From Escherichia coli (GTDB taxonomy: Bacteria; Pseudomonadota; Gammaproteobacteria; Enterobacterales; Enterobacteriaceae): a DNA stretch of 64,000 nucleotides. The notes below the pieces were generated by a model that was not told where the DNA came from, did not search any database, and worked only from the letters and a program-made list of their open reading frames with translations. Positions within the stretch are counted from its first letter, which is position 1; each line of letters starts with the position of its first letter. Location of the stretch: the NCBI RefSeq assembly GCF_050920415.1, contig NZ_CP169309.1; one strand, written 5' to 3'. Of this stretch, positions 1,725-32,933 are shown piece after piece. The translations under genes were made by a program, and so were the position numbers.

Positions 1725-2185
1725 ACTTTGTAACCTTCTACAATCTCTTTATAAATATCGTCGGCGTTGTTTGGATCTTCGAATGCCTTACGCAAAAATT
1801 CCGGCTCCGCGTTTGGGTCCCAATATTTACCTTTGCCAGTACCGCCGCCGAACTCAATTACCTGTTTCGGGCCGAAATCTGAAAGGTTATTGGTTTTCCC
1901 GAAATGTTCGCGCGGCTGGCCTTTTAATGTGCCCGGCATATTGTGCACCCATTCAGCATAGCGGGCCGTGTATCCAAGACGTAATTGCAAACCGTCCGCC
2001 GTGTTACCTATATACTGAAATTGACTGTTAATTAAAAACCCCGTATCGACCGGGGTCATGTTCGCCGCGAAGCCACCAGCCAGCATCCCTACTCGCCATA
2101 ACACCTCATGAGTTTTCTTATCTGTGATTTCCTTTAGCTCCTGCTTTAATCGCTCCCTGACACGTTTAACACCCTTGATAGGCAT
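1721..2185 (-). CDS. phage head-tail joining / tail completion protein
   Basis: 154-aa ORF in the structural operon, 4-nt overlap with the downstream gene. Confidence 0.35.
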   Translation of the reverse strand: MPIKGVKRVRERLKQELKEITDKKTHEVLWRVGMLAGGFAANMTPVDTGFLINSQFQYIGNTADGLQLRLGYTARYAEWVHNMPGTLKGQPREHFGKTNNLSDFGPKQVIEFGGGTGKGKYWDPNAEPEFLRKAFEDPNNADDIYKEIVEGYKV

Positions 2186-3189: not shown

Positions 3190-4245
3190 TTAAGATTTTT
3201 TACCGTAAACGACACCGGAACGGCCTAACATGTCGCTGGTGATCTGTAAGCCTTCTGCTGACATGATGCGGAAGTTGTAGTTATCGGTAGGCATGAGGCG
3301 CGGTAGCGGAACTACACCAGTAGTCATACCGATCAGCGGGGTAATCACTGATTTCTGGCGCTGGTAAGCGATGAACTCGTTACCTTTCAGTGCGAAGGTC
3401 TGACGAATTTCACCAACCGGGATGTACGGTTTAATTACATCCAGGACGCGACCAACAACCGCACCATTAACGACGTGAGGCGCGGCAAGGTTAGCCATGA
3501 TTTCAGGGGATACCCACATAACATCGTATTTAGCTACGAAGTTGTTGCGGGCCAGAGTACCGAAAGCGCCAGTAGTAAAGAATGCGATAATTTCCTGGAA
3601 GGTCATCGTAGTGAGATCTTCATTGGTCATCTTTAACTGCTGGGTATTGCGGTGATTTTTGATACCCTGTGCTTTTTTGCCTTCAACGACGATACGGTCG
3701 CTCCCTTCAAGGTAGAAGCGAACACGTTCTTTGTTGAATTTTTTCAGTTTCAGGCGCTGGCTATCCAGAGCAAGGTCGACACCAACGGTGTTTAAACCTG
3801 CTGCGTGACGCCAGTTAACCCCGTAACCTGCCGTGAACATCGGAATCGGATCGCCATCGCTACCGTATTCAGTATGATCGAAGCCATGAGGGGCTTGACC
3901 ATCCATAGAAATGACGACTTCATCATTGATGTCACCTGCTACGCTGTACATTTTCAGTGTTTTACCGATTGGCAGTACAGTCTGCACCCCCATCAGGTCG
4001 TTTACGATCTCGATACCAATTTCTTCGGTGTTTAGTTCGATGATCTGGTTGTCAATTTCCTGCCAGAACTCACGGGCAAAACCGCCAACGGCGTTACATG
4101 CCAGCATTTCAGGGGTCATATTGGCACGGTTAGCAGCAATCATAGAATCATGCTGCTGATTAAAGATGTTACGTTGCGCCCACATTTCTTGCCAGTGACT
4201 TTGCATACGGGCGTTAGTAGCAAGGTTTTCCCTAGTAAAATACAT
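3190..4245 (-). CDS. major capsid protein
   Basis: 351-aa ORF downstream of scaffold/decoration-like genes and followed by a strong attenuating terminator. Confidence 0.5.
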   Translation of the reverse strand: MYFTRENLATNARMQSHWQEMWAQRNIFNQQHDSMIAANRANMTPEMLACNAVGGFAREFWQEIDNQIIELNTEEIGIEIVNDLMGVQTVLPIGKTLKMYSVAGDINDEVVISMDGQAPHGFDHTEYGSDGDPIPMFTAGYGVNWRHAAGLNTVGVDLALDSQRLKLKKFNKERVRFYLEGSDRIVVEGKKAQGIKNHRNTQQLKMTNEDLTTMTFQEIIAFFTTGAFGTLARNNFVAKYDVMWVSPEIMANLAAPHVVNGAVVGRVLDVIKPYIPVGEIRQTFALKGNEFIAYQRQKSVITPLIGMTTGVVPLPRLMPTDNYNFRIMSAEGLQITSDMLGRSGVVYGKKS

Positions 4246-15733: not shown

Positions 15734-15774
15734 TTTTCTGCCCTCCGCATCGTTCTCTCTTCAGCTTCTTTATA

Positions 15775-15808
15775 ACAAAATGGCACTGCCGAAACAATGC
15801 CATTTTGT
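15775..15808. promoter_or_regulatory. inverted repeat ACAAAATGGCA-N12-TGCCATTTTGT (operator/promoter-like)
   Basis: Perfect 11-bp arms at 15775-15785 and 15798-15808; overlaps a TGTTATAAA extended -10-like element on the minus strand. Confidence 0.4.
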
Positions 15809-15815
15809 AAACTTT

Positions 15816-15828
15816 GGGGGGGGGGGGG
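15816..15828. repeat. homopolymeric G13 (C13 on the coding strand) tract
   Basis: 13 consecutive G at 15816-15828 in an intergenic region directly next to the inverted repeat. Confidence 0.9.
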
Positions 15829-15841
15829 TAGATCACGCTTT

Positions 15842-20356: not shown

Positions 20357-20958
20357 GCCGCCTTTCTCCTTAAGGCGTCCAATTTTGCCTGATAGATGTT
20401 TATTAGCTCCTTACATTCTGCGATCGTCCATTTGTGCGTATCGTTGTTGTTCTCCAGTGCTACCACCCTGGCGAGGCCAATTTTTCGAATCAGCGCCGGG
20501 CGATACCCTCCGATGTTGCCGTCTAGTGTCTGGTTGCAGTGCCTGCATTGCTTGTGACAATTATCCTCGTTGAAGCGAAGGTGTCCGGCGGCGGCTACCG
20601 TCCTGTAATGGCCTGCATCCCACCCGCATTGCTCACCGTAGTAAGTCCCGCATGATATGCACGGCAATCGCGCGTCACGCTCGCGTATATAAGCGTTAAA
20701 AACGTTTTGCGCCTGTTTAATCCAGTAGCTACGCGGATTTAACTGCTTCCGCTTCCGGTTGCGTTCTTCCCGCTGGCTATCACGGCGTTTCTTCCGTTCC
20801 ATAGCCTTCATAGCCTTCTCACGGTCGCGGCATAGCTGATCAAACTTCAGTTCTTCCAGACATTCATCGCTGCACCACGTTTGATTGTGATATTTAGGCT
20901 CAAAAAAAACGCCGCAGCATTTGCAACGGCGTCTTATGGGTTTTTTAGGGTTCTGCAT
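20353..20958 (-). CDS. ninG: NinG (Rap) recombination protein
   Basis: RSYWIKQAQ...AYIRERD...PCISCG...WDAGHYRT...LRFNE...HKQC closely matches lambda NinG; start at MQNPKK with a GGGGTGG SD. Confidence 0.75.
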   Translation of the reverse strand: MQNPKKPIRRRCKCCGVFFEPKYHNQTWCSDECLEELKFDQLCRDREKAMKAMERKKRRDSQREERNRKRKQLNPRSYWIKQAQNVFNAYIRERDARLPCISCGTYYGEQCGWDAGHYRTVAAAGHLRFNEDNCHKQCRHCNQTLDGNIGGYRPALIRKIGLARVVALENNNDTHKWTIAECKELINIYQAKLDALRRKAA

Positions 20959-21149: not shown

Positions 21150-21270
21150 AATGCTCTCTCCTTTTCAGGTGATTTCTACGCATTTCAGCGCTGCCGGATT
21201 TTTAAAGAGCATTTCGTTTGCTTGAAGTATACAAAATGGATGCACCTGAACAAGGCAAAAAGCGCCATTA

Positions 21271-21286
21271 TGTGACCAAAATCACA
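21271..21286. promoter_or_regulatory. CRP-like palindrome TGTGA-N6-TCACA
   Basis: TGTGACCAAAATCACA in the intergenic region upstream of ninF, 8 bp from a GCCATTTTGTAAACTTT element. Confidence 0.4.
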
Positions 21287-21308
21287 CAATGACGCCATTT
21301 TGTAAACT

Positions 21309-27508: not shown

Positions 27509-28149
27509 TAACCCATCTCCCCGTTAAGCTCTGATTTTCTGATCTGGTATACGTCGCTCGCTTTCTGTCGTTGCTCTGAGTTTTCAGGTAATAACTTCCA
27601 GCATTTAGCAAAAATATCTTTAAGTGCTTTTTCGTCCTGCGCTTTCGCTGCCGCATCACAGAAACGTGCTAATACTTCATCAGGATTTGGCGGCGCTTTC
27701 TGCTGCTGCGGTTGTTGTTTTGGTGGGTTTTTCTGTTGTCGCGGCTGCTGGCCTGTCTGCTTCGCGTAAGCATCAGTATCAGGATCGCGAGCATCATCTA
27801 TACAGAATAAACCGTTCAAAGCATATTTCCGCGCGTAACTTGATGTTGCTCCTGTTAGCTGGCTGGCGTCCATACCCTTCTTGCTTTCTTCCTCCCTGGC
27901 ATAAGCAGTTACCGCTATTACGTCTTCACCGTCGCTTAGCGTCGCCGTAGCTTTCACATAATAGCGATTGCCGATCAGGACAATTTCATCACTAACAGTC
28001 AGCGTGATATTTTGAAGCAGTGGTTTAACCGCCTCTAAAATATCCTCCGCCGACCTGTAATTATACCCGCCAAAATTATTACGCTGATTTTTCGGCGCGT
28101 TCAGCGTTTGCTGAATCGTCCATAGTTTTTTATGTAACTCTGTTTTCAC
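27508..28149 (-). CDS. Erf-family single-strand annealing protein
   Basis: 213 aa; N-terminal LNAPKNQ...FGGYNYRSAEDILEAVKPLL resembles P22 Erf; followed by ssb. Confidence 0.55.
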   Translation of the reverse strand: MKTELHKKLWTIQQTLNAPKNQRNNFGGYNYRSAEDILEAVKPLLQNITLTVSDEIVLIGNRYYVKATATLSDGEDVIAVTAYAREEESKKGMDASQLTGATSSYARKYALNGLFCIDDARDPDTDAYAKQTGQQPRQQKNPPKQQPQQQKAPPNPDEVLARFCDAAAKAQDEKALKDIFAKCWKLLPENSEQRQKASDVYQIRKSELNGEMG

Positions 28150-28298
28150 CCTTTAATCTCCTTCGCTGTTAACACTACGTATAAGGCTTTATTCGCGGCG
28201 CTCCACATTTCGGCATCGTGAAGCATTTCCGCTACCGCCAGTTTGAATTGAAGCGCCCGAATAACCATAATGTCACCTCCGGATGTTTACATTTTGTA

Positions 28299-28589
28299 TT
28301 AATGGTAGCGGACTTTATCCAGGGGTTTTTCCCCTAAATGGCGTGGTTGCGTTGCGTGGTAGTAGCTGCCGCTTTCATTTTCCGTATACCATTTTACTGG
28401 TCCTTTGCGACGTTCTTTAATGCTATTTGGTTTGCATCTTTCCTCGTTTGCAAATCGAATAGCTTTATCCACATTGTCTGTTTTATTGATTGCAGGTGAT
28501 GATTTTCTTTCGTTTTCTCTTTTTATCCTTCTGCGTTCCCTGGCATTCAGTTTACTGTCACATTTGCCATACATAATTGTAACGCTCAT
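28299..28589 (-). CDS. N-like transcription antitermination protein
   Basis: 96 aa with an arginine-rich motif NARERRRIKRENERK near the N-terminus; first gene after pL; boxA/boxB nut site in its leader. Confidence 0.5.
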   Translation of the reverse strand: MSVTIMYGKCDSKLNARERRRIKRENERKSSPAINKTDNVDKAIRFANEERCKPNSIKERRKGPVKWYTENESGSYYHATQPRHLGEKPLDKVRYH

Positions 28590-28644: not shown

Positions 28645-28682
28645 GCCGCACTTCCAGCGGCTGACCAGATTGTTAATGAGCG
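28645..28682 (-). promoter_or_regulatory. nutL-like site (boxA CGCTCATTAACAA + boxB hairpin)
   Basis: Minus strand CGCTCATTAACAA, then TCTGGTCA, then GCCGC-TGGAAGT-GCGGC, ~60 nt upstream of the N-like ATG. Confidence 0.5.
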
Positions 28683-28936
28683 GCTTAACATCTTTCAACT
28701 AATCCCGCAATCATCGCCGTTCCCGGCGTGACCTTGCTCACTCCAAGCAAGCTGACTCGTCGCCTTGCGTGCGGTTTCGTGGGGGATGTAACGCTTTAAA
28801 CACCCCATGCGCCTTGTTATCAGTGCCGCTTTCGGTCCCCCATCGGGGAGTTACTCCACGGTTGACAAGGTGTTAAGCCTGATTTTTAAAGTGCCAGGAA
28901 GTTGCTTTTGTTACCTGCGCCCTTCCTTTGACTCGC

Positions 28937-28965
28937 AATATACGCCCCGTAAAACACCGAGTCAA
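28937..28965 (-). promoter_or_regulatory. pL-like sigma-70 promoter
   Basis: Minus strand TTGACT, 17-bp spacer, TATATT; two CATTTTGTAT motif copies immediately upstream. Confidence 0.45.
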
Positions 28966-29057
28966 TCCATTTTGTATACTTTTTTAAAACATTTTGTATG
29001 CTATTGATATTTAAGCAATAAATAACGCTTCCTGTTTACGTTTTGGTGTTTTCCGGG

Positions 29058-29082
29058 CAAAGAAAAGCCGCCATCCGGCGGC
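29058..29082 (-). terminator. rho-independent terminator downstream of the repressor gene
   Basis: Minus strand GCCGCC-GGAT-GGCGGC hairpin followed by TTTTCTTT, 7 nt after the CI stop. Confidence 0.6.
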
Positions 29083-29088
29083 TAATGT

Positions 29089-29736
29089 TTATGGCAGGTT
29101 TACGATCTTCGCATCAACCACCACACCTATGATTTTTGATTCTGGATTCATAGGGATTGGCGGATACAGAGGGTTGAGCGAACGTAAAAGCCTTTGACCT
29201 CCATCAATAATCAACTGTTTAAACGTCGGTATCTGCCCTTCCTCAAGCTGGGCTATAACCAGTTTGCCGTCAATAGCTGGCGCGTGCGGATCGACAAGTA
29301 TCATCGTCCCCGCTGGTATACTCAATCCTTGCGGCGCGTTCATTGATTCGCCTTTAGCTACCAGCCAATAACTATCATCTGAACAAATAACGCTAGTCGT
29401 AACGTGTGGTAATGTTGATCGCCTTGTATCATCCATATTGTTTACTGTGTCCTTCCAGTCAACAACCGGGTAACTGCCTAAATCACGCTGCGGCGCTCCC
29501 GGTAACGTGTTAGAAACAGAATCATCAATGACCATTCCATCATGTGTAACAGTGAATTGCCGACGACCAAGCGCCCGCATAATCCGCGCAATATCTTCAA
29601 GATTTGGCTCGCGGCGACCGTTAAGCCAGTGTGACAGGCCGCCTTTAGTTATCCCCATGAGATCCGCGAGTGAATCCTGGCTCATGCCTTGCGCTCGCAT
29701 GAGCTGCTTTGCTAAGTCATACCATTTTGTTTTCAT
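29089..29736 (-). CDS. CI-type prophage repressor (HTH + S24 LexA-like peptidase domain)
   Basis: 215 aa; N-terminal XRE-type HTH (QDSLADLMGITKGGLSHWLNGRR), C-terminal AKGESM serine and downstream Lys of S24 self-cleaving repressors. Confidence 0.75.
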   Translation of the reverse strand: MKTKWYDLAKQLMRAQGMSQDSLADLMGITKGGLSHWLNGRREPNLEDIARIMRALGRRQFTVTHDGMVIDDSVSNTLPGAPQRDLGSYPVVDWKDTVNNMDDTRRSTLPHVTTSVICSDDSYWLVAKGESMNAPQGLSIPAGTMILVDPHAPAIDGKLVIAQLEEGQIPTFKQLIIDGGQRLLRSLNPLYPPIPMNPESKIIGVVVDAKIVNLP

Positions 29737-29795
29737 GTCGCTACCCTATAACCTCAAAAAGTTTGATACAAGTCACAAAATGTATTTTTCAAGTC

Positions 29796-29823
29796 TTGAC
29801 CTAAAAACGCCATTCTGTAAACT
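29796..29823 (+). promoter_or_regulatory. pR-like sigma-70 promoter overlapping an operator-like motif
   Basis: TTGACC, 16-bp spacer, TAAACT; GCCATTCTGTAAACTT overlaps the spacer and -10. Confidence 0.45.
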
Positions 29824-29900
29824 TGCAGACAAGGTAGGGCCATAGTTGCAAAGACGCAAGAAAAAAGATAACGGAATAGCACAAAAAGGCGCATACCTTA

Positions 29901-29933
29901 TGCTCTTTAATAATCTGGTGTCGCTGCGAAGCG
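29901..29933 (+). promoter_or_regulatory. nutR-like site (boxA TGCTCTTTAATAA + boxB hairpin)
   Basis: TGCTCTTTAATAA, then TCTGGTGT, then CGCT-GCGAA-AGCG in the pR leader. Confidence 0.5.
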
Positions 29934-30041
29934 AAAAACAAATATCACGCAACGGCGGGATCTGTTAAGCGGTCAATCACTGCTACCTAATACTAATGGG
30001 ATACCCGCCCGCGCGTTCACTCTAACATAGGAGAAAACACA

Positions 30042-30296
30042 ATGAGTATGCACATGATGAATGAAGTATGGAAATTAAAACTTAACAGCCCTATTCAAAA
30101 ACTTGTCTTAATGGCGATGGCTGAAAAGGCAGATAACAAAGGACGGGTACATGTATCACGCAAAGAAGTAGCCGCAATGTGTGAACTTCCTGTTTATACG
30201 GTACATGATGCCTTCGCCGCGTTAATGGATAAAGGATTTGTTTGTCGTCTTGATGCATTCAGTGATGTCTATGTAGTGATGTTGCCGGAGGAATGA
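30042..30296 (+). CDS. winged-HTH DNA-binding protein (Cro-position, replication-associated HTH)
   Basis: 84 aa; first gene of the rightward operon with an AGGAG SD; directly precedes the replication initiator gene. Confidence 0.4.
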   Translation: MSMHMMNEVWKLKLNSPIQKLVLMAMAEKADNKGRVHVSRKEVAAMCELPVYTVHDAFAALMDKGFVCRLDAFSDVYVVMLPEE

Positions 30297-31796: not shown

Positions 31797-32915
31797 ATGT
31801 CGCAAAGAAAGATCAGCGATGAGGAATTAATCGCTGAGTACAAGAAGGGGAAAACTTACAAGCAAATAGCCGAAGAATATGGAATGGCAAAACGCAACGT
31901 CGAACGACTGGGCGCGCGGTTGGCGAAACGCGGTTTAATATCCACGCGTCGCGCGCCGGGTTTTGGCGTCAATGGTGAGTCTTTGCTCGTTGATAAAGAT
32001 GGCAATGTAATCATGCGCTGGATTAAAACAGCCCGTGACCGTGATGAAATGGAAAGGCTAATGCAAGCGGCTTGCGATGCTTTCACGGAAGAAATACCCC
32101 GAGCGGAGGCCGTGCCAGTGCCGGAAATTGATTTTCAAAAAAGTCTGGCCCTTTATCCGGTATTCGATTTGCATATAGGGGCGCTTGCTCATAAAGCTGA
32201 GTGCGGCGAAAGCTACGACACCGGGATCGCTGAACGCGTGCTAAATGATTTCTTTGACTACGCGGTAGGCGCTGCGCCAATGTCTGAAAAGGCTGTTTTG
32301 CTTCTCGGCGGTGATGTGCTTCACACTGACGGCCTGTTACCAGTGACGCCATCAAGTAATCACGTTTTAGATTGTGATTCACGCTACGCAAAACTGGTTT
32401 ATGTGGCGATCCGGTCGGTCCGGCGTGCGGTCGGGAAGATGTTACTAAATCATAAGGATGTCGAGATCCAGGTATTATCCGGTAATCACGACCAATCAGG
32501 TATGATCTGGCTACGTGCTGCGCTTGCGGCTTTTTACGAAGATGAGCCGCGTGTGACTGTTGACGTGTCACCTGCCATTGTCCACCACACACAGTACGGC
32601 AAAACATTCCTTGCTTACCACCACGGGCACACTATCAAAAAGCCAGAAAATTTACTTTCTGCCTGCGTTTCTGACTGGCGGGAGGATTTCGGCAAGTCGT
32701 CGGCGGTTTACGCTCATTGCGGGCACTGGCATCATCAACGGCTGATTGAATCATCGTTAGGCGTTGTCGAGTATCACGGCACATTAGCTGGCAAAGACGC
32801 TTATTCAACGAATGGCGGCTGGCGGTCGCGGAGGCTGGCGGCGGTAATAATTTACAGTCCTGATCACGGGGAGATCGGGCGCTTTGTTTATTACCCTGAA
32901 TATTCCATTTTGTAA
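31797..32915 (+). CDS. HTH-domain / calcineurin-like metallophosphoesterase fusion protein
   Basis: N-terminal HTH (KTYKQIAEEYGMAKRNVERL); C-terminal phosphoesterase motifs DLH, GGDVLH, GNHD, GHWHH; GAGGAAG SD. Confidence 0.5.
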   Translation: MSQRKISDEELIAEYKKGKTYKQIAEEYGMAKRNVERLGARLAKRGLISTRRAPGFGVNGESLLVDKDGNVIMRWIKTARDRDEMERLMQAACDAFTEEIPRAEAVPVPEIDFQKSLALYPVFDLHIGALAHKAECGESYDTGIAERVLNDFFDYAVGAAPMSEKAVLLLGGDVLHTDGLLPVTPSSNHVLDCDSRYAKLVYVAIRSVRRAVGKMLLNHKDVEIQVLSGNHDQSGMIWLRAALAAFYEDEPRVTVDVSPAIVHHTQYGKTFLAYHHGHTIKKPENLLSACVSDWREDFGKSSAVYAHCGHWHHQRLIESSLGVVEYHGTLAGKDAYSTNGGWRSRRLAAVIIYSPDHGEIGRFVYYPEYSIL

Positions 32916-32933
32916 ACCTGAGGAAATACCATA

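Follow-up and report, generated by a model that had tools for sequence, protein, structure and literature searches.

The phage immunity region in the window (the whole 64,000-nt stretch of Escherichia coli DNA analyzed here) is flanked by two boxA-boxB elements whose hairpin loops differ in size, which raises the question of whether a single N protein could recognize both. An earlier note on this DNA had regarded such a difference as unusual for one N protein. Very probably, the window contains an N-type early processive antitermination system of a temperate coliphage of the mEp021 group.

Identity of the Prophage and the Published System

The DNA of the mEp021 group is 91-97% identical to the window, and the gene order of the immunity, replication and recombination region matches that of mEp021, which indicates that the window represents an E. 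coli temperate prophage of this group (mEpimmI). In section 3.5 of PMC11893012, which cites Valencia-Toxqui et al. 2023 (Arch Virol 168:92), Gp17 of mEp021 is described as an N-like early antiterminator that acts via nutR1, nutR2 and nutL. Passages of the same paper, a later account of the mEpimmI group (Negrete-Mendez et al. 2025), also state, with reference to Valencia-Toxqui et al. 2023, that Gp17 is required for early antitermination and that the system is experimentally characterized in mEp021; they further report terminator read-through by the Gp17 system and, citing Kameyama et al. 1999, the dependence of the mEp collection phages on host Nus factors. The N-like protein and the nut sites have been catalogued in 48 genomes of the mEp021 group. 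In PMC11739229, Gp17 appears merely as a His-tag control.

The three nut sites of mEp021 occupy the same map positions as those in the window. The published positions upstream of gp17 and downstream of the cytosine methyltransferase gene are both matched, as is the remaining one, which falls within the leader of the operon that diverges toward the replication side, on the side of gp15 (the repressor gene) away from gp17; PMC11893012 words this last position as upstream of gp15. The nutR1 site of mEp021 is identical to that of the window, as are the boxB elements of nutL and nutR2, and the nutL boxA and spacer read AGCUCUUUAAAAAUCCGG in mEp021 versus UGCUCUUUAAUAAUCUGG in the window, with differences that are merely allelic. 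The published names, which are used below, are opposite to the L and R labels of the earlier note; the published map is inverted, and the discrepancy is one of map orientation only. Both members of the pair of nut sites in that note exist, but nutR2, the third site, had been missed. The proposal of nut sites with an N-like protein was therefore right in outline and already known from the near-identical mEp021, and as stated it matters little, since both have been characterized in that phage.

Three nut Sites with an rrn-Type boxA

The boxA of nutR1 (nutL in the earlier labeling) is located at 28670..28682 on the minus strand (CGCUCAUUAACAA), upstream of the N-like gene. From 28682 to 28645, this strand reads CGCTCATTAACAA TCTGGTCA GCCGC TGGAAGT GCGGC, exactly as previously given for the pL-side boxA, spacer and hairpin. 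The boxA of nutL (formerly nutR) occupies 29901..29913 on the plus strand (UGCUCUUUAAUAA) in the replication-side leader, and this segment reads TGCTCTTTAATAA and is followed by TCTGGT, again as described. Each of these boxA elements has one mismatch to YGCTCTTTAACAA, in agreement with the claimed 12 of 13 positions, and the spacer TCTGGT is indeed common to the two sites. The third boxA is at 21199..21211 on the minus strand (UGCUCUUUAAAAA), within the nutR2 site at 21178-21211 (-), which lies shortly after the gene for the cytosine methyltransferase (phrog_757), as published. All three sites follow early promoters and have boxA ahead of boxB on the strand that is transcribed. The boxA of nutR1 is conserved in 44 related loci, and in short-leader relatives the boxA at this position is the exact rrn consensus UGCUCUUUAACAA.

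Taken alone, boxA occurs near chance frequency in the window (six matches at ≤2 mismatches versus 3.8 expected), as would be anticipated if these elements were chance matches or had another RNA role unrelated to antitermination, for example in RNase III cleavage or attenuation. However, the 19-nt composite of boxA and spacer occurs twice in the window, with 0.01 occurrences expected. A covariance model of boxA, spacer and boxB gives three matches in the window at 52-57 bits and no other above 11 bits; because the window's own sequences were included in building the model, the informative part of this result is the absence of further matches. Over the related loci, the model gives 142 matches in 49 sources, three per complete locus. 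The comparison with the nut sites of related phages, which had been proposed as a check, thus reveals sites that are syntenic in 49 of 49 related loci and that covary. Although trained on mEp sites only, this model also recovers sites outside its training set in L050, a distant relative (42.5 and 26.2 bits), and in the immunity region of P22 its top two matches are the annotated nutL and nutR (14.7 and 14.3 bits), followed by a match of 5.4 bits.

A fourth model match (1743-1800 (+); 11 bits, E 0.24) was discarded, as it is antisense, with a 20-nt loop and a position within coding genes of the minus strand. Additionally, a boxA-like CGCTCTTTAATAT on the antisense strand is conserved in relatives and was set aside for having no hairpin. 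Over the whole window, Rfam gave no match that reached its gathering score, and at E ≤ 10 only sub-threshold chance matches were obtained between 28560 and 30060, with no nut, put or hammerhead family. The three sites are nut sites, with nutR1 and nutL in the leaders of two divergent early operons.

A Common Apex in the boxB Loops

The boxB of nutR1 (28645..28661, minus strand) is GCCGC-UGGAAGU-GCGGC with a U-GGAAG-U loop, and that of nutR2 (21178..21191, minus strand) is GCGC-UGAAAU-GCGU with a U-GAAA-U loop. For the boxB of nutL, the earlier reading of CGCT-GCGAA-AGCG contains an inserted A: positions 29921-29934 (+) are T CGCT GCGA AGCG A, which form the 5-bp stem UCGCU/AGCGA and a 4-nt GCGA loop, i.e., a GNRA tetraloop closed by U-A (UCGCU-GCGA-AGCGA). 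The misread hairpin led to the false puzzle of a 5-nt loop. The loops of nutR1 and nutL do differ in size, but formally as 7 versus 4 nt rather than 7 versus 5, and as 7 versus 6 nt in the family-wide register (U-GGAAG-U versus U-GCGA-A).

In divergent relatives, the nutR1 orthologues have the stems GCAC/GUGC, UCGC/GCGA, UGCAC/GUGCA and GCUAC/GUAGC with U-GAAA-U/A loops, the nutL loop occurs as GCAA, GUGA or U-GCGA-U, and the nutR2 stem variants ACGC/GCGU and CCGC/GCGG preserve pairing. Across the related loci, 98.7% of the boxB stem cells are paired, and compensatory changes are found in three of the five pairs; the nutR1 stem of one relative (L006) contains an A.C mismatch. The covariation score of 0.458, compared with 0.132 for shuffles, is reached by none of 500 shuffles, and slid registers all score ≤0.073. 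The apex is G-N-R-A in all 30 distinct sites (GAAA, GCGA, GCAA, GUGA or GGAA(G)) and has U.U or U-A on its two sides throughout; the same motif with one additional G makes up the 7-nt loop. A simple rule thus describes the boxB elements of the group, with U on one side of a GNRA apex and U or A on the other, and the helix is maintained by selection together with a GNRA-like loop. This apex is common to the three loops of the window, and the nut sites of P22 also have formal loops of 5 and 7 nt within one phage; therefore, unequal loop size is no argument against recognition by one N protein.

By folding energy, the three hairpins are not set apart from shuffles (z -0.2 to -0.7), and the support for them is comparative, not energetic. 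The minimum free energy structure of nutL is its boxB hairpin; that of nutR1 favors a competing fold involving another GCCGC immediately 5' of boxA. A functional role for this fold, in which the upstream GCCGC pairs with the 3' arm of boxB, was rejected because short-leader relatives do not have the upstream copy. Although unremarkable energies would be consistent with chance matches or another RNA role, the comparative data contradict that explanation, the probability of which is negligible.

The rule that holds for lambda and P22, in which an internal base is extruded to leave GNRA, covers the GGAAG loop only if its 3' G is the extra base. The loops of the group would presumably adopt the GNRA three-dimensional fold, with the 3' G as the probable additional base of the 7-nt loop.

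The N-Like Protein

The gene for the 96-aa protein (28299..28589, minus strand) is the first after the promoter and nut site, and the arginine-rich motif of the protein is N-terminal (approximately residues 13-29; K13-K29 is KLNARERRRIKRENERK). The protein is 94.8% identical to Gp17 of mEp021, with R17, R19, R20, R21 and R24 kept, and 92.7-96.9% identical to seven phage orthologues. In PHROG 271 ("anti-termination protein N-like"), the Gp17-like sequence matches with E 1.2e-11 and gp24 of P22 with E 6.9e-40. An hhalign comparison with P22 gp24 gives E 3.9e-4 at a probability of just 36%, and Gp17 and gp24 have the N-terminus M[ST]V..YGK...NA..RR in common. Resemblance to classical N proteins is otherwise weak, with a Pfam N_peptide score for the 96-aa protein of 16.9 bits, below the cut-off of 27.9. 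These similarities support the previous assignment of the arginine-rich protein as an N-like antiterminator and suggest that its classical relative is that of P22, not that of lambda.

No N protein was matched in PDB sequence searches with the single Gp17 sequence or the family profile, and among 50,697 phage records, the seven mEp-group phages alone were matched by Gp17 in tblastn. A profile search of 1.84 billion representatives returned four matches, including one distant relative (P0034), the contig of which contains two nut sites outside the training set of the model. P0034 has no family match in Pfam or PHROG and thus provides no bridge to classical N proteins.

Early Promoters, Terminators and the Leader Insert

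The gp17 operon is preceded by a predicted sigma-70-type promoter at 28937..28965 on the minus strand (TTGACT-N17-TATATT), which matches 10 of 12 consensus positions, is the best of the region and is conserved in relatives; an operator-like 13-mer adjoins its -35 element. On the replication side, the promoter at 29796..29823 (+) is TTGACC-N16-TAAACT with the 13-mer CCATTCTGTAAAC over the -10 element. Between them, a cI/LexA-type repressor (HTH_3 and Peptidase_S24; 29089..29736, minus strand), an orthologue of Rep021, is encoded, and its gene is followed by an intrinsic terminator at 29066..29083 (-), which is TERM_1 of mEp021. Terminator-like sites are present downstream of the nut sites, and the mEp021 record also contains terminator annotations.

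Between the gp17 promoter and nutR1, a conserved, GC-rich and strongly structured insert of ~213 nt occupies the leader (28690..28905, minus strand). A hammerhead-like core in this insert (CUGAUAA...GAAAC) was rejected because an A is present at the catalytic G8 position and Rfam gives no match. Small ORFs (mEp021_16 and PHANOTATE predictions) were also rejected, as the sole variable hairpin changes by compensatory, non-synonymous substitutions; PGAP calls no gene here.

The nutR2 site is ~7.4 kb along the gp17 operon, after a strong terminator hairpin and before NinF-NinG-RusA-Q. This hairpin (21261..21296, minus strand) has 16 bp and a T-run, lies between the methyltransferase gene and nutR2, and corresponds to TERM_4 of the mEp021 record; its loop is variable, and its G.U pairs occur on the minus strand only. 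The Q-type late antiterminator gene (PF03589; 19048..19770, minus strand) is reached only after nutR2, NinF, NinG and RusA, an order that is the same in relatives. At 21226..21253 (-), immediately before nutR2, a candidate third early promoter, TTGTTC-N16-TATACT with the 13-mer CCATTTTGTATAC over the -10 element, is suggested by conserved -35 and -10 blocks alongside hypervariable segments, and the nutR2 boxA begins ~8 nt after its predicted start.

A separate repressor-controlled promoter for nutR2 may be regarded as a lead. There is nearly an even chance that nutR2 has no promoter of its own and re-loads or reinforces Gp17 on polymerases from the gp17 promoter, with the upstream blocks serving as an operator or another protein site. 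The consensus scan did not list 21226..21253, whose -35 element matches at 3 of 6 positions, the operator-like 13-mer also occurs at 32905 and 21295, where a promoter is implausible, and nutR2 is simply an additional nut site in the description of PMC11893012. On the other hand, TTGTT and TATACT are invariant at a fixed spacing of 15-16 nt in 38 distinct sequences, whereas both flanks of the -35 element are hypervariable, and the arrangement, with 8 nt between the -35 element and a 13-mer that includes the -10, equals that of the promoter at 29796-29823.

The boxA elements raise another alternative, namely, that antitermination is of the rrn type and independent of N, with a near-consensus boxA alone loading Nus factors, the hairpins incidental and the 96-aa protein otherwise employed. 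The boxA of the window has the rrn-type CUUUA core, which is absent from lambda, and the boxA core UGCUCUUUA is identical in the E. coli rrn leader; some relatives have the exact rrn consensus, and rrn boxA functions with neither a phage protein such as N nor boxB (PMC2724277). However, the rrn leader has the order boxB-boxA-boxC, which is reversed relative to the phage nut arrangement of boxA then boxB found here, and boxB is kept by compensatory changes with a strict GNRA apex. Additionally, rrn-type complexes suppress mainly Rho-dependent terminators (PMC2724277), whereas the strongest signal here is an intrinsic-type hairpin with a T-run, and published work, as summarized in PMC11893012, assigns early antitermination to Gp17. 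N-independent antitermination is thus very improbable.

Proposed Mechanism and Implications

In the proposed Gp17-dependent mechanism, the divergent sigma-70 promoters would fire when the cI/LexA-type repressor is absent. The minus-strand transcript would contain a nut site, the Gp17 gene and then recombination and accessory genes, and the plus-strand transcript would contain a nut site followed by replication genes. In each nut RNA, the rrn-type boxA (..GCUCUUUA..) should recruit NusB-S10 and would be followed by the conserved UCYGG spacer and the short boxB hairpin, at the apex of which U.U or U-A would enclose a GNRA tetraloop (as U-GGAA-G-U in the site closest to gp17). Gp17 would bind boxB through its N-terminal arginine-rich motif and, together with Nus factors, may render RNA polymerase terminator-resistant, allowing it to read to the Q-type regulator and through the replication operon.

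We tentatively consider a broader reading, which is possible but somewhat doubtful: that the group has its own boxB class (GNRA between U.U/U-A, tolerating one 3' base, as in U-GGAA-G-U) and three repressor-controlled early promoters, each with a nut site, and that the structured leader insert adds control of N synthesis. If so, the third promoter would drive NinF-NinG-RusA-Q directly, which would explain the extra nut site, and the ~213-nt leader RNA might add a further layer of control over N synthesis. These two leads bear on why a prevalent gut-phage group uses three nut sites.

Comparison with Known Systems

In P22, whose record attributes antitermination at the nut sites to gene 24, gp24 shares with Gp17 both PHROG 271 and the N-terminus MxV..YGK..NA..RR, whereas the C-terminal halves do not align. 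The P22 boxA has CUUUA as in the mEp group, an AAUCUG spacer is found in P22 nutR, and the boxB stems are of the CCGC/GCGG and GCGC types, also as in the mEp group, with loops that have either a U-A closing pair or a flanking pyrimidine-pyrimidine pair. However, the loops of P22 are pentaloops (GACAA) from which the C is extruded (PDB 1A4T; bioRxiv 10.1101/2025.07.03.663028), whereas in the window two of the three sites have a plain GNRA tetraloop and the third has GGAAG. Two nut sites rather than three are annotated in the P22 record, and P22 nutR follows cro, a gene that the phage of the window does not have at that position.

The logic of lambda is similar, with a protein bearing an arginine-rich motif, boxA then boxB, Nus factors and read-through to Q, and N is the first gene of its operon, as gp17 is here. 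The lambda boxA is CGCUCUUA, with one U fewer (PMC2724277), its boxB loops are GAAAA/GAAGA, unlike those of the window, and lambda N has no sequence similarity to Gp17 detectable in PDB searches. In the window, it is the N operon that leads to Q, not the replication operon, unlike in lambda. In phi21, a tetraloop-like fold exists inside a hexaloop, the terminal bases of which make a non-canonical flanking pair (C-UAAC-C; PDB 1NYB), which is comparable to U-GNRA-U here, but the loop class is UMAC rather than GNRA. The boxB class proposed for the mEp021 group, if correct, would add a fourth mode of recognition to those known from lambda and P22, with their pentaloops, and from phi21, with its hexaloop.

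Relationship to phage mEp021 and its Gp17 protein

The region in the window is 91-93% identical to mEp021, mEp010, mEp013, mEp044, mEp515, mEp554 and MagusPhagus, and among 5,426 complete E. coli genomes, 34 contain prophages that match it at up to 96.8% identity. PMC11893012 (Front Microbiol 2025), which cites Valencia-Toxqui et al. 2023 (Arch Virol 168:92), describes mEp021 Gp17 as the N-lambda-like protein behind early antitermination, with residues R17, R19, R20 and R24 kept in 48 genomes. According to that paper, the phage group requires host Nus factors, and the Gp17 targets are three nut sites: nutR1 5' of gp17, nutR2 3' of a cytosine methyltransferase and, on the repressor side, nutL. 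The 96-aa protein of the window shares 94.8% identity with Gp17 and contains every named arginine. This identity, together with the published role of Gp17, bears out the proposal of the earlier note that the arginine-rich protein is an N-like antiterminator. The nut/Gp17 antitermination system is already known. The GenBank map of mEp021 is the reverse complement of the window, and solely because of this map orientation the names differ: the nutL of the earlier note is the published nutR1, and its nutR is the published nutL. The published names are used below.

The two nut sites around the repressor gene

The gp17-proximal site, nutR1 (28682-28645, - strand), reads CGCTCATTAACAA-TCTGGTCA-GCCGC-TGGAAGT-GCGGC, with the boxB hairpin as originally described when read on the - strand, and the 96-aa ORF (28299-28589, -) has its ATG 56 nt past the site. 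The replication-side site, nutL (29901-29934, +), reads TGCTCTTTAATAA-TCTGGTG-TCGCT-GCGA-AGCGA. Its hairpin had been given as CGCT-GCGAA-AGCG, but the extra A is absent from the sequence, and the loop is therefore the 4-nt GCGA. Each of the two boxA elements departs from YGCTCTTTAACAA at one position, in agreement with the 12 of 13 matches counted previously. BoxA-like 13-mers alone occur at near-chance frequency (6 found, 3.8 expected), and the 19-nt composite of boxA plus spacer is confined to these two sites (0.01 expected). Both sites are on the transcribed strand, each 3' of a good sigma-70-type promoter, TTGACT-N17-TATATT on the gp17 side (28965-28937, -) and TTGACC-N16-TAAACT on the replication side (29796-29823, +), with a cI/LexA-type repressor gene (29089-29736, -) between the two early promoters. 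The hairpin folding energies of the nut sites are unremarkable.

A third site and comparative analysis of boxA-boxB

A boxA-spacer-boxB covariance model returns three matches in the 64-kb window (52-57 bits; all others score 11 bits or less). The third site has its boxA at 21211-21199 (-), TGCTCTTTAAAAA, followed by TCCGGCA and GCGC-TGAAAT-GCGT. This boxA is 98 nt 3' of a 252-aa DNA methyltransferase gene (phrog_757), and genes for a NinF-like protein, NinG, RusA and a Q-type antiterminator (PF03589) follow 3' of the site, which is the published nutR2. The two sites claimed as a pair are real; this third one had been overlooked. A fourth match at 1743-1800 (+; 11 bits, E 0.24) is antisense, lying inside structural genes of the - strand, and was dismissed as a chance hit.

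The comparison covered 43 IMG/VR loci, 4 loci encoding Gp17 homologues of 67-79% identity, the distant relative L050 and the mEp021 record. In these 49 sources the model locates 142 sites, with three in every complete locus. The boxB stems vary among sites and lineages with pairing retained (GCCGC/GCGGC, GCGC/GCGU, ACGC/GCGU, CCGC/GCGG, UCGC/GCGA, GCAC/GUGC, UGCAC/GUGCA and GCUAC/GUAGC). Across 18 distinct sequences, 98.7% of the helix cells are paired, three of the five pairs show compensatory changes, and the covariation score of 0.458, against 0.132 after shuffling, is reached by none of 500 shuffles; covariation collapses in all slid registers. Outside the training set, sites in L050 score 42.5 and 26.2 bits, and the annotated P22 nutL and nutR are themselves the two top-scoring matches in that phage's immunity region (14.7 and 14.3 bits), ahead of one at 5.4 bits.

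All boxB loops fit one common register, U-[GNRA]-U/A, of which the U-GGAAG variants contain GNRA plus one base. The loop is U-GAAA-U in every nutR2 and in nutR1 of divergent relatives, U-GCGA-A in nutL of most loci, and U-GGAAG-U in mEp021-type nutR1; single loci carry U-GAAA-A (L046, L050), U-GCGA-U (mEp515), U-GCAA-U (L040), U-GUGA-A (L028) and U-GGAAG-C (L031). Fixed G and A with variation at N and R is the pattern expected of a GNRA tetraloop. The formal loop is 4 nt where the flanking U and A pair and 6 nt where the flanks are U and U. The gp17-proximal loop has one base more than the other sites, and we infer that this is the 3' G, which leaves GGAA as the GNRA loop. P22 offers a direct precedent for unequal loops: its record attributes antitermination at the nut sites to gene 24, and its boxB loop is 5 nt in nutL (GCGCU-GACAA-AGCGC) and formally 7 nt, with a C.C flank, in nutR (CCGC-CGACAAC-GCGG). 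For the GACAA loop of P22 and the CUAACC hexaloop of phi21, the literature reports a GNRA-like fold in which a base is extruded or the flanking pair is non-canonical (bioRxiv 10.1101/2025.07.03.663028). The unequal loop sizes, once considered unusual for a single N protein, are no longer puzzling given the common register and the P22 loops; the initial reading holds in outline, and its errors are in the very details from which the puzzle arose.

A candidate promoter at nutR2

A terminator-like hairpin of 16 bp, with a T-run, lies immediately 5' of nutR2 (21296-21261, -) and corresponds to TERM_4 of the mEp021 record. The hairpin has a hypervariable loop and G.U pairs that are confined to the transcribed strand, so that it varies as an RNA terminator would. 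Between this hairpin and the nutR2 boxA is a promoter-like element, TTGTTC-N16-TATACT (21253-21226, -), whose TTGTT and TATACT are conserved in 38 distinct sequences, with hypervariable sequence flanking the -35 to left and right. The 13-mer CCATTTTGTATAC contains the -10, and the replication-side promoter has the same layout of -35, 8 nt and 13-mer (TTGACC-N8-CCATTCTGTAAACT). The 13-mer CCATTTTGTAWAC is over-represented (11 matches with at most 2 mismatches, 2 expected), with sites at 28967-28979, 28989-29001, 29810-29822, 21295-21307, 15800-15812 and 32905-32917 on the + strand and 21227-21239 on the - strand. At the early promoters it lies next to or over the -35 or -10, two copies adjoin the gp17-promoter -35, and inverted pairs surround the terminator 5' of nutR2 and occupy an intergenic gap near 15.8 kb (15774-15812). 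The 13-mer probably serves as an operator for the repressor or another regulator; operators are not defined in PMC11893012.

These features suggest that the nutR2 element may be a third early promoter under repressor control, and the number of nut sites would then be accounted for. Its -35 is weak, and the element did not come up in the promoter scan; the chances of this role and of a purely re-loading role for nutR2 are about even.

Two further observations concern these regions. A terminator-like hairpin with a T8 run (20910-20928, -) is inside the 5' end of ninG, approximately 250 nt past nutR2, and may be a terminator served by nutR2 or a by-product of the ninG coding sequence. A 13-base poly-G run (15816-15828, +) in the intergenic gap 15734-15841 adjoins the inverted 13-mer pair and may be regulatory or prone to slippage.

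A structured insert in the gp17 leader

Between the gp17 promoter and nutR1, the window (28690-28905, -) and 36 of the 43 recovered leaders carry a GC-rich insert of approximately 213 nt; in the seven relatives without it, boxA begins approximately 45 nt past the -10. The insert was found in the mEp021 prophage group only; conservation is 97-100% for most copies and exceeds that of the flanking sequence. The insert folds better than shuffled sequences (z -2.9), with a single variable hairpin whose three compensatory pairs all come from one lineage, and has no Rfam match, PGAP gene or credible ORF.

In long-leader phages GCCGC occurs twice, at 28681-28685 (-), just 5' of and overlapping boxA, and at 28657-28661 (-), as the boxB 5' arm. 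The MFE fold of the gp17-proximal site pairs the upstream copy with the boxB 3' arm. This fold may compete with the nut structure, in which case boxA would be hidden; the upstream copy is absent from short-leader relatives.

Comparison with known systems

The best-supported reading is N-type processive antitermination of the standard kind at the three nut sites. Transcription of the gp17 operon would pass several terminator-like sites as well as the recombination and accessory genes before reaching NinG-RusA-Q, and that of the divergent operon would pass through the replication genes.

A cro-like gene is absent between the repressor and replication genes (29737-30041), and the first gene past the replication-side promoter and nut site encodes an 84-aa winged-helix protein (30042-30296, +) matching a replication-initiator N-terminus (phrog_4617). 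In L050, a 75-aa HTH_3 cro-like gene (3564-3791) lies 5' of a nut site.

Judged by sequence, the nearest classical system appears to be P22 rather than lambda, and the homology is remote. The Gp17-like protein and P22 gp24 both match PHROG 271, annotated 'anti-termination protein N-like' (E 1.2e-11 and 6.9e-40), share an N-terminal M[ST]V..YGK...NA..RR and align by hhalign over residues 3-48 and 2-68 (E 3.9e-4, probability 36%). P22 nutR and the gp17-proximal site have the AAUCUG spacer and the CCGC/GCGG stem in common. Against Pfam N_peptide the protein is below threshold, with a weak match in 14 of 16 family members, and neither the single sequence nor the family profile matches a PDB chain. 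P22 gp24 has nothing that corresponds to the conserved C-terminal third of Gp17, KWY.E.ESG.Y.HA.QPR.LGE.PLD.VRYH. The boxA of the window is of the rrn type (UGCUCUUUA), with an extra U that lambda boxA lacks and that has been reported to enhance antitermination (PMC2724277). Directly after the N-like gene, a 40-aa ORF (28146-28268, -) matches phrog_34942 and, weakly, Kil (phrog_2055; PF06301 is weak in the related locus L049). The gene order N, kil, erf, ssb resembles that of the P22/lambda left operon.
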